From NCBI RefSeq assembly GCF_003334405.1, contig NZ_QOWM01000003.1: DNA of 64,000 nt. One strand, written 5' to 3'. Below, piece after piece: positions 58,779 to 61,700 of this stretch. The position numbers were made by a program. Position 1 is the first letter of the stretch. Every line of letters begins with the position of its first letter. This DNA comes from Escherichia coli (lineage in GTDB: Bacteria > Pseudomonadota > Gammaproteobacteria > Enterobacterales > Enterobacteriaceae).

Positions 58779-61700
58779 TAAGGAATGGGTAAGATGAACC
58801 ATCAGGATGAATTGCCGTTAGCGAAAGTCAGCGAAGTTGACGAGGCGAAGCGGCAATGGTTGCAGGGGATGCGTCACCCCGTTGATACGGTAACCGAACC
58901 AGAACCTGCTGAAATCCTGGCTGAGTTCATTCGCCAGCATTCTGCGGCTGGGCAGCTGGTGGCGCGCGCCGTGTTTCTCTCGCCACCCTATTTGGTTGCA
59001 GAAGAGGAACTGTCAGTTTTGCTGGAAAGCATTAAGCAGAACGGAGACTACGCGGATATCGCTTGTTTGACGGGAAGCAAGGATGATTACTATTACTCAA
59101 CGCAGGCCATGAGTGAAAACTACGCGGCGATGTCTTTGCAAGTTGTGGAGCAGGACATTTGTCGCGCCATTGCACACGCCGTTCGTTTTGAGTGCCAGAC
59201 GTATCCTCGTCCTTACAAAGTCGCCATGCTGATGCAAGCGCCATATTACTTCCAGGAAGCGCAGATTGAAGCCGCGATCGCCGCGATGGATGTTGCACCT
59301 GAATATGCCGATATACGGCAGGTGGAGTCATCGACGGCGGTGTTGTACTTGTTTAGCGAGCGATTTATGACCTATGGCAAGGCTTATGGCTTATGCGAAT
59401 GGTTCGAGGTAGAGCAGTTTCAGAACCCCTGAAATTTCAGGGAGATGTCATGGATAGGGTGGACAGTTGCAGCCACTGCATTAGGGGATAATCAGATGTC
59501 CTTCACTCGACGCAAATTTGTTCTGGGGATGGGAACAGTAATCTTTTTTACTGGTTCTGCGTCTTCTCTGTTAGCGAACACGAGGCAAGAAAAGGAAGTT
59601 CGGTATGCCATGATTCATGACGAGTCACGGTGCAATGGCTGTAATATTTGCGCCCGCGCATGCCGTAAAACTAACCACGTCCCCGCTCAGGGAAGCCGTT
59701 TATCGATAGCACACATTCCAGTCACCGATAACGACAACGAAACGCAGTATCACTTTTTTCGCCAGTCATGTCAGCACTGCGAAGATGCTCCGTGCATCGA
59801 CGTTTGCCCGACGGGGGCGTCGTGGCGTGATGAGCAGGGGATCGTGCGGGTAGAAAAATCGCAGTGCATCGGCTGCAGTTATTGCATTGGCGCTTGTCCG
59901 TACCAGGTTCGCTACCTTAACCCTGTCACTAAAGTGGCAGATAAATGTGATTTCTGCGCTGAGTCCCGACTGGCAAAAGGCTTTCCGCCCATTTGCGTCA
60001 GCGCCTGCCCGGAACACGCATTGATCTTTGGTCGCGAAGATAGCCCAGAAATTCAGGCGTGGTTGCAGCAAAATAAATACTATCAATATCAGCTACCTGG
60101 TGCCGGGAAACCGCATCTGTATCGCCGGTTCGGTCAACATTTGATTAAAAAGGAAAATGTATGAATCCGTCGCAACATGCTGAACAGTTTCAGAGCCAGT
60201 TAGCGAACTATGTGCCACAGTTCACTCCCGAATTTTGGCCGGTGTGGTTGATCATTGCCGGAGTATTGCTGGTTGGGATGTGGTTGGTGCTGGGGCTGCA
60301 TGCCTTGCTTCGTGCTCGTGGCGTGAAGAAATCAGCCACCGATCATGGTGAGAAGATTTATCTTTACAGCAAAGCGGTCAGATTATGGCACTGGTCGAAT
60401 GCGTTACTCTTTGTATTGTTGCTGGCCAGTGGGCTGATAAATCACTTTGCGATGGTGGGCGCAACTGCGGTTAAAAGTCTGGTTGCGGTGCATGAAGTTT
60501 GCGGATTTTTGTTACTGGCATGCTGGCTCGGCTTTGTGCTGATCAATGCCGTTGGGGATAATGGTCACCACTATCGCATTCGTCGTCAGGGGTGGCTGGA
60601 ACGAGCGGCAAAACAAACGCGATTTTATTTGTTTGGCATTATGCAGGGGGAAGAACATCCTTTCCCGGCAACAACCCAGTCTAAATTTAATCCCTTACAG
60701 CAGGTCGCCTATGTTGGTGTCATGTATGGATTGCTGCCGTTGTTACTATTGACGGGGCTGCTGTGTCTCTATCCGCAAGCCGTGGGAGATGTGTTTCCTG
60801 GCGTAAGATACTGGTTATTGCAGACACATTTTGCTCTGGCATTTATAAGCCTCTTTTTTATCTTCGGTCATCTTTATCTTTGCACCACGGGGCGTACGCC
60901 ACACGAAACCTTTAAAAGCATGGTCGATGGCTATCACCGGCACTAACGAATGATCATTACACAAGCAGACCTGCGAGAATGGCGTATCGGAGCGGTGATG
61001 TATCGCTGGTTCCTGCGCCATTTCCCACGCGGCGGTAGTTATGCCGATATTCATCATGCACTGATTGAGGAAGGATATACGGACTGGGCGGAGAGTCTGG
61101 TTGAGTATGCGTGGAAAAAATGGCTGGCGGATGAAAACTTCGCGCATCAGGAAGTTTCCTCTATGCAAAAACTGGCCACAGACCCCGGAGAGAGACCATT
61201 TTGCAGTCAGTTTGCCCGCAGCGACGATCATGCTCGCATCGGCTGTTGTGAGGATAACGCCAGAATCGCAACCGCTGGGTATGCCGCGCAAATTGCCAGT
61301 ATGGGTTATAGCGTGCGGATTGGAAGTGTCGGCTTTAACAGTCACATTGGCAGCTCCGGTGAACGCGCACGGGTTGCTGTAACCGGTAATTCTTCGCGGA
61401 TAAGCAGCGCTGGAGATAGCAGTCGGATTGCGAATACCGGAATGCGAGTACGCGTTTGTACATTGGGTGAACGGTGTCATGTCGCCAGTAATGGTGACCT
61501 GGTGCAAATCGCCAGCTTTGGCGCAAACGCCAGAATTGCCAACAGCGGCGACAATGTACACATCATTGCCAGCGGTGAAAATTCAACGGTAGTGAGCACG
61601 GGCGTGGTCGACTCAATTATTCTCGGGCCAGGAGGAAGCGCCGCACTGGCATATCATGACGGCGAAAGAGTTCGCTTCGCCGTCGCCATTGAAGGTGAAA

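Follow-up and report, generated by a model that had tools for sequence, protein, structure and literature searches.

YdhT of Escherichia coli: a nonapeptide-repeat protein with a predicted beta-solenoid fold, an operon setting and phage relatives

Introduction

Proteins built from short tandem repeats occur in several well-described systems, and it is with these that YdhT, an Escherichia coli protein with a nine-residue repeat, has to be compared. RTX proteins (the HemolysinCabind family) iterate the nonapeptide GGxGxDxUx, in which the Asp binds calcium; these proteins, block V of CyaA included, are secreted by type I systems and fold in extracellular calcium. Region IV of the Marinomonas primoryensis antifreeze protein (3p4g) and curli CsgA (8c50) are built from turns of 19 or about 22 residues, and both proteins are extracellular and calcium- or amyloid-based. 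Collagen consists of G-x-y triplets and ice-nucleation proteins of 16-residue repeats, and SufD, NosD and UreD/UreH are beta-helical assembly scaffolds. The ydhT gene analysed here lies at the end of the ydhY operon in a 64,000-nucleotide stretch of E. coli DNA (RefSeq assembly GCF_003334405.1, contig NZ_QOWM01000003.1), which is referred to as the window throughout.

The gene, the family name and models of close YdhT orthologues, which Foldseek retrieves from the AlphaFold database (AlphaFold DB), are already public. The repeat, the fold and the phenotype of YdhT are not described in the literature searched, which covered ydhT, the operon, DUF7666 and nonapeptide solenoids; the 'ydhT' of PMC5120140 is a misprint for yhdT. 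YdhV, which is encoded in the same operon, is an AFOR-type bis-Mo-MPT protein whose substrate is still unknown (PMC13328260).

The nonapeptide array of YdhT

Between aa 95 and aa 229, YdhT advances in strict steps of nine residues with zero insertions or deletions. The 15 units read ARIGCCEDN, ARIATAGYA, AQIASMGYS, VRIGSVGFN and SHIGSSGER (units 1-5), ARVAVTGNS, SRISSAGDS, SRIANTGMR, VRVCTLGER and CHVASNGDL (units 6-10) and VQIASFGAN, ARIANSGDN, VHIIASGEN, STVVSTGVV and DSIILGPGG (units 11-15), the final two being degenerate. Column by column they follow [AVS]-[RHQ]-[IV]-[AG]-[ST]-x-G-[DEY]-x; the Gly is present in 13 of the 15 units and Ile or Val in every one. A nine-residue periodicity had been proposed in a reading of this DNA from the sequence only (hereafter the sequence-only reading), and BLOSUM62 autocorrelation of the array confirms it: lag 9 scores z = 11.8 and lags 18, 27 and 36 score z = 9.6-10.0, values that none of 2000 shuffles matched, and the remaining lags all stay at z <= 0.8. 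The same reading had recognised the repeat and undercounted it, listing 12 units and speaking of 'about 13'; it left out the fifth unit, SHIGSSGER (aa 131-139), and the last two. The span it gave, 61220-61630, was nearly right (Table 1).

At the DNA level the periodicity is faint. Identity at lag 27 reaches 0.43, compared with 0.265 at other in-frame lags (z about 6); at third codon positions it is just 0.32, and Tandem Repeats Finder did not report a 27-nt array in ydhT. The 27-nt period that the sequence-only reading had suggested looking for therefore exists as a weak signal transmitted through the codons, and not as a tandem DNA array. Because the DNA period is weak, third positions agree so little and the tandem array is absent, the repeat must be old and maintained at the level of the protein. 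Within each unit, small or aliphatic residues (A/S, I/L, S/A and G) take the odd positions and polar or variable ones the even positions, a composition compatible with inward/outward alternation along each strand.

Predicted architecture

Alignment A1, which comprises 13 rows of YdhT orthologues and two phage relatives, served as input for AlphaFold2. The resulting model has a mean predicted local distance difference test (pLDDT) of 91.4 and a predicted template modelling score (pTM) of 0.87, and a second, independent run on a YdhT-YdhW fusion returned an identical secondary structure for YdhT. One strand of four to five residues is predicted for each nonapeptide from aa 85 to 225. Upstream of the array, the model shows five helices (aa 5-11, 15-24, 31-41, 44-58 and 62-76; pLDDT about 90) that make up the domain YdhT_N; of the 47 YdhT homologues listed, all except four carry this precomputed Pfam label. 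Between this domain and the array, the block aa 71-90 is the lowest-confidence part of the model (pLDDT 71-73), the first strand is placed at aa 85-90, and the linker segment, aa 78-94, varies more in length among orthologues than any other part. Downstream of the array follows a C-terminal module with predicted strands at aa 230-236, 241-247, 258-261 and 267-269. Family-wide it measures about 50 aa, extending back to aa 225 in the last rungs, and it is the best-conserved part of the protein across the wider family; 14 of the 32 invariant columns of A1 fall at aa 225-259, and 11 of the 14 from aa 230 onwards.

The whole array aligns, with no query residue skipped, to helices of 18-20 residues per turn (RTX, MpAFP and Vag8). 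On account of this alignment, two units probably make up each turn (about 18 residues), so that the rod would have roughly 7.5 turns and a length of about 35 Angstrom. Positions A1, I3 and S5 probably face the core, G7 probably makes the turn, and positions 2, 4, 6 and 8 are probably exposed, an assignment that is based on strand positions and not on coordinates. YdhT contains no membrane-grade hydrophobic stretch (maximum Kyte-Doolittle value 1.23 over 19 residues), and visual inspection of the protein revealed no signal or secretion sequence. Overall, YdhT is most likely a soluble cytoplasmic protein in which a five-helix N-terminal domain is followed by a rigid beta-solenoid and a capping C-terminal module. 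The sequence-only reading is thus partly supported: the solenoid it proposed is predicted at high pLDDT, and the function it proposed, discussed below, is compatible with the data and no more than that.

Table 1. Coordinates in the window of ydhT, its predicted protein segments and the neighbouring operon genes
Feature	Position	Strand	Basis
ydhT coding sequence, 270 aa plus stop	60950..61762	+	ORF list, NCBIfam NF007410
YdhT_N (PF27195), N-terminal five-helix domain (predicted), aa 1-77	60950..61180	+	AlphaFold2, precomputed Pfam label
Linker and degenerate first rung (predicted), aa 78-94	61181..61231	+	AlphaFold2
15 nonapeptide units, predicted beta-solenoid, aa 95-229	61232..61636	+	register reading
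C-terminal beta module (predicted), aa 230-270	61637..61759	+	AlphaFold2, alignment A1
ydhU stop / ydhT start junction, TAA CGA ATG	60944..60952	+	read from sequence
ydhY	56032-56658	+	ORF list
ydhV	about 56679-58781	+	ORF list
ydhW	58785-59432	+	ORF list
ydhX	59496-60164	+	ORF list
ydhU	60161-60946	+	ORF list

Comparison with named repeat families

Searches of the PDB, whether with single sequences or with profiles, gave no significant match for whole YdhT, for its N-terminal domain or for its C-terminal module, and a Pfam-A search with YdhT returned zero matches. Foldseek comparison of the model with the PDB gave nothing significant either (best E = 1.3), and the match to UreH (E = 1.3) is accordingly non-significant.

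An RTX calcium roll is ruled out by the single Gly of each YdhT unit, the missing GGxGxD and the lack of a HemolysinCabind Pfam match in YdhT. The profile match to RTX in the PDB is a weak, periodic one (E = 0.06), with the hydrophobic position out of register. Unlike the secreted RTX proteins, YdhT is cytoplasmic according to the prediction above, and no secretion genes lie near ydhT in the window. The Hexapep left-handed beta-helix (PF00132; period 6, [LIV]-G-x4) was rejected on a lag-6 score of z = 0.2 and no Pfam match, and pentapeptide repeats on a lag-5 score of z = -1.9. An acidic DNA mimic in the manner of Qnr and MfpA was discarded as well, the array having a net charge of +2 and the family a mean of about 0 per unit. 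With the collagen-like SclB model YdhT reaches 10.9 bits where 325 are required, and the structure predicted for YdhT is beta; neither the triplets of collagen nor the 16-residue repeats of ice-nucleation proteins were found in it. Bactofilin and curlin Pfam models do not match YdhT. Fold-level similarity between the YdhT model and CsgA is observed, at 10-13% identity; identity to the antifreeze protein is in the same range, and these two proteins differ from cytoplasmic YdhT in being extracellular. With SufD, NosD and UreD/UreH, YdhT has neither a sequence relationship nor a motif in common; the likeness to these scaffolds was not counted as evidence. In sequence, the YdhT repeat belongs to none of these named repeat families; its predicted fold is of the familiar solenoid kind.

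Relatives of YdhT have acquired labels such as 'collagen-like', 'ice nucleation' and 'hemolysin', which do not fit the predicted fold; these arise because the repeat is Gly-rich and its period is divisible by three. In units of the type found in Edwardsiella phage GF-2, Gly occupies positions 4 and 7 of the nonapeptide and mimics a three-residue period, and the 'collagen-like' annotation of GF-2 gp55 is at odds with the predicted fold. Matches of GF-2 gp55 and several other relatives to tail-fibre families in the PHROG collection fall on the G/S-rich repeat and were judged to be compositional.

Operon setting and conservation

The open reading frame passes the 300-bit cut-off of the NCBIfam equivalog 'protein YdhT' with 489.7 bits (E = 2.4e-147, aa 2-270). 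Its ATG lies three bases 3' of the ydhU stop codon, a junction that suggests translational coupling, and no sigma-70-like promoter was found in 60700-62000. In Limnobaculum (Jinshanibacter in the source record), ydhU and ydhT overlap by one base. A scan for ydhT loci with one genome per species returned 53 loci, 39 from Enterobacterales and 14 without ydh genes. Of the 39 Enterobacterales loci, 37 have ydhY-V-W-X-U directly 5' of ydhT and the remaining two are truncated upstream, so that the earlier description of ydhT as the last gene of the ydhY operon holds both in the window and well beyond it. The linkage of ydhT to ydhYVWXU spans Escherichia, Citrobacter, Budvicia, Limnobaculum, Leminorella and Proteus, over which YdhT identity falls to 34%. 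In Limnobaculum and Edwardsiella, the neighbours carry the Pfam labels AFOR, Fer4, YdhW_C and Ni_hydr_CYTB. The operon of Edwardsiella tarda (4690-9954 of locus L005) reads ydhY-V-W-X-T, lacks ydhU (cytochrome b) and occupies another chromosomal neighbourhood, adjoining nap genes; because ydhU is missing there, YdhT function would not need a membrane anchor. Operon-linked copies have 13-17 strictly scored units, compared with 6-19 in the seven non-operon genome copies counted and about 21-25 in phage GF-2.

ydhT is an E. coli core gene: it is present at 95% nucleotide identity or more in 5418 of 5426 complete genomes, all copies but one being chromosomal, and 5413 of the 5418 retain at least 80% of its 813 bp, the length at which the gene is fixed in this species. 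Between Escherichia species, the ratio of non-synonymous to synonymous substitution rates (dN/dS) is 0.05-0.10, near that of ydhU and lower than that of ydhW, and it is lowest in the repeats (0.02-0.05) and the C-terminal module (0.011-0.044). The low dN/dS, core-gene status and fixed length argue that YdhT is a functional protein. Identities between Proteus and E. coli are 80% for YdhV, 78% for YdhY, 69% for YdhX, 61% for YdhU, 42% for YdhW and 34% for YdhT, ydhW being the second-fastest evolving gene of the operon.

Several further observations concern ydhT alleles and the genes around them. In P0006, a cluster of 169 sequences, a frameshift replaces the C-terminal module; among rare natural alleles, exactly eight units are missing from P0010 of E. 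coli, and exactly five from the Citrobacter-like P0036. GenBank CP025887.1 ('Escherichia phage 503046'), an unannotated 23-kb record, encodes YdhT at 98.9% protein identity (18751-19560) and is probably chromosomal DNA rather than a phage copy. The convergent genes ydhT and ydhS end with only 11 nt between their stop codons (61760-61776), and any terminator must therefore sit inside the opposite gene; the pair has been named an 'excludon' (PMC12288877). At the N-terminus of YdhY (56032-56160), the Tat-like motif TRLEFLR precedes a lipobox-like LLSLLGC, and YdhX, read from the Met at 59496 (59496-59580), begins with a Tat motif of canonical form, TRRKF. Export of both ferredoxin-like subunits is thus conceivable, YdhY possibly being a lipoprotein.

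Relatives in phages and prophages

A phmmer search of 1.84 billion cluster representatives identified at least 611 clusters that match YdhT at E <= 1e-3, 210 of them at E <= 1e-10, and the top 150 were inspected. Most of these share a core consisting of an array of 2-22 strictly scored units, with the family-wide consensus [AS]-[QKR]-[IL]-[AG]-[SA]-S-G-[DYN]-x, and the C-terminal module, with the consensus G.GG...L...DG.R.R.AV.Y.GENGIK....Y.L...G.FVE; in a few, an extension of about 200 aa takes the place of the module after the array. No Pfam model matches the repeats or the module in the five full-length proteins scanned, and YdhT_N is the sole Pfam entry recorded for YdhT homologues.

The N-terminal domains vary, and include YdhT_N, classic and divergent DUF7666 (PF24703), Macro/DarG-like domains, A1S_2505 and others. 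P0089 (546 aa) has a Macro domain ahead of DUF7666 that matches the DarG antitoxin model at 1.9e-20; P0081 (490 aa) shares the same Macro-like N-terminal sequence, as a motif only; and P0091 (505 aa) carries an 'A1S_2505 phage non-structural' domain. The Macro/DarG-like heads hint at a link to ADP-ribosylation conflicts. PADLOC defence models matched neither YdhT nor eight of the nine relatives tested, and they matched P0089 through its Macro domain alone (DarG).

Among described phage proteins, GF-2 gp55 and Komagataeibacter phage phiKX1_180 have the complete three-part architecture of YdhT including YdhT_N, gp55 being 36% identical to YdhT over aa 1-243; unlike operon-borne ydhT, both are phage early genes. 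Salmonella phage ES18 gp53, SEN22_35 and Pseudomonas phage phi2 gp13, members of PHROG 4433, 18079 and 27197, are DUF7666 proteins with a YdhT-like solenoid and C-terminal module. Their phmmer E-values reach 1e-30 and below, Foldseek matches their AlphaFold DB models, and aa 100-270 of YdhT match PHROG 4433 (E = 1.7e-6); all three PHROG families are labelled 'unknown function'. The DUF7666 domain (C...GFHxC.NP) is not found in YdhT, which has no PF24703 match, so that the solenoid and C-terminal module alone are shared. A common origin of YdhT_N and DUF7666 was rejected (hhalign probability 0.3%). In contrast to YdhT, the DUF7666 phage proteins are borne by phages or prophages, lie in early operons and range widely in repeat number.

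Most family members examined are early, non-structural genes from temperate phages, and in the annotated phages the gene is without exception early and non-structural. In GF-2 and Salmonella phage ES18, the gene lies directly 3' of the N antiterminator gene in the leftward early operon, before cIII and kil; in SEN22, also a Salmonella phage, N and the family member are separated by a sieB-related gene in the opposite orientation. The N-to-cIII position is the one that ral, sieB and gene 17 occupy in lambda and P22. In Acinetobacter phage fLi-Aba02, the family gene is found downstream of cI and before xis and int; gene 30c of this phage (3453-4490 of its locus, L063) is of the DUF7666 type and annotated 'putative ADP-ribosyltransferase', a label for which support was not found. 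The family gene of phiKX1 follows the antirepressor gene, and those of Paracoccus phage Shpa, Pseudomonas phage phi2 and Blautia phage Montmirail lie among replication, partition and regulatory genes. The 14 bacterial loci without ydh genes come from Acetobacteraceae, Lonsdalea, Trabulsiella and Chromobacterium, and most of them are prophages, given that further flanking genes are shared with the early regions of phiKX1 or GF-2.

The phage arrays are dynamic in length. In GF-2 gp55 a 27-nt unit is repeated in tandem 20.9 times at 89% match (6279-6843 of locus L001), an array that, judging from its sequence, has been recently expanded or homogenised and is likely to be a hotspot for in-frame length change; whereas the GF-2 array is homogeneous in its DNA, that of ydhT has diverged. 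During an evolution experiment, 'ydhT_1' of Serratia symbiotica, which is located in a mitomycin-inducible prophage, lost exactly 54 bp (PMC12505973), which corresponds to two units.

Possible functions of YdhT

We favour, with about even confidence, a role for YdhT in Enterobacterales as a non-enzymatic, rigid adaptor for the Ydh oxidoreductase, both the adaptor role and the partner being inferred. The rigid rod would set a constant spacing between the partner of the N-terminal domain and that of the C-terminal module, and the protein would be dedicated to the FNR-regulated YdhYVWXU oxidoreductase (AFOR-type, bis-Mo-MPT), to whose assembly, maturation or stability it would most plausibly contribute. 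Its solenoid and C-terminal module could derive from the phage family, or YdhT could be the chromosomal source of that family. A non-enzymatic adaptor or spacer is favoured because the array shows no conserved catalytic residues: invariant columns within it are almost all Gly in A1, and no catalytic Pfam or NCBIfam family matches YdhT. The narrow repeat number of the operon copies was counted in favour of a length constraint. The sequence-only suggestion of a non-enzymatic role, as a scaffold or maturation factor, is consistent with this array without catalytic-looking residues, with the strict synteny and with the presence of other beta-helical maturation scaffolds (SufD, NosD and UreH) among the fold matches; the one direct test, a model of YdhT with YdhW, showed no confident interface.

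That model is one of several points that weigh against the adaptor. AlphaFold2 prediction of YdhT-(G4S)6-YdhW, a weak test run on a shallow paired alignment and with no predicted aligned error (PAE), gave pTM 0.53 and no confident interface, both halves having folded well. The figure of two units per turn comes from alignments and not from coordinates, YdhT is the fastest-diverging member of its operon, and frameshifted or shortened ydhT alleles occur in some E. coli strains. The closest relatives outside Enterobacterales belong to phage early operons unrelated to redox enzymes, and no ydhT phenotype is reported in the literature searched. YdhW itself is modelled in the fusion with about 40 disordered residues at its start; the rest, at pLDDT about 85-90, is predicted to consist of two similar helix / beta-hairpin / helix halves.

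The main alternative, conceivable if rather unlikely, is that YdhT is instead a domesticated or hitch-hiking phage early protein with an activity unrelated to the oxidoreductase, its C-terminal module binding the conserved bacterial target of the phage relatives in the service of exclusion, as a decoy or to control a host process. The rapid divergence of YdhT within the operon would suit such an origin, as would the relatives in GF-2 and phiKX1, which share all three parts of the protein, and the occurrence of the module behind unrelated N-terminal domains, DarG-like Macro and A1S_2505 included, in the 611 or more clusters. The genomic positions point the same way, namely those between N and cIII in ES18 and GF-2, the sieB-related gene that follows N in SEN22, and the phage-like flanks of most of the 14 loci without ydh genes. 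Against this stands the operon itself: ydhT is strictly its last gene across four or more Enterobacterales families and in differing neighbourhoods, abuts ydhU and is under strong purifying selection, and no mobile-element genes were recognised at the three operon loci inspected (window, Limnobaculum and Edwardsiella). Repeat number is narrow and stable in the operon and not in the phage copies, and PADLOC yielded no match for YdhT.

The remaining alternatives concern the solenoid itself. Self-association into dimers or polymers in the manner of curli, bactofilin and Ag43, either end to end or through a flat face that small residues would form at positions 4 and 6, is improbable, given that in the model a folded domain sits on each end of the rod, normally a bar to growth end to end, that bactofilin and curlin models do not match, and that YdhT is cytoplasmic whereas curli and Ag43 are extracellular. 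Still less credit is due to an active site on the helix, as in pectate-lyase-like, tailspike and acyltransferase helices. Enzymatic beta-helices do match YdhT at the fold level, but at only 6-16% identity; the strict period of nine without indels means that the rungs have no loops or insertions to build a cleft, the array lacks a conserved acidic or catalytic constellation, and its period is nine rather than six, with no Hexapep match. An RTX-type calcium-binding beta-roll of nonapeptides is hardly credible at all in view of the missing motif and Pfam match, the one Gly per unit, the alignment out of register, and the cytoplasmic context of a protein in which no signal sequence was seen by eye.

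Implications

No long-standing question is answered by this analysis, and the fold could already be retrieved from AlphaFold DB. What emerges for E. coli is that YdhT, one of its remaining uncharacterised core gene products, is modelled as a rigid rod of repeats, under constraint and with two binding ends, and is probably not an enzyme. The phage connection is the part most worth pursuing, and it gives an architecture to DUF7666 and to the 'unknown function' families PHROG 4433, 18079 and 27197. As a speculation to which we attach only a small chance, solenoid and C-terminal module could form a widespread, undescribed 'delivery stalk' of phages that docks on a conserved bacterial target and presents interchangeable heads early in infection, E. 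coli YdhT being a copy that the ydh operon acquired in the distant past. If true, this would define a new family of host-takeover or counter-defence proteins, and YdhT would tether the oxidoreductase to that target or guard it.

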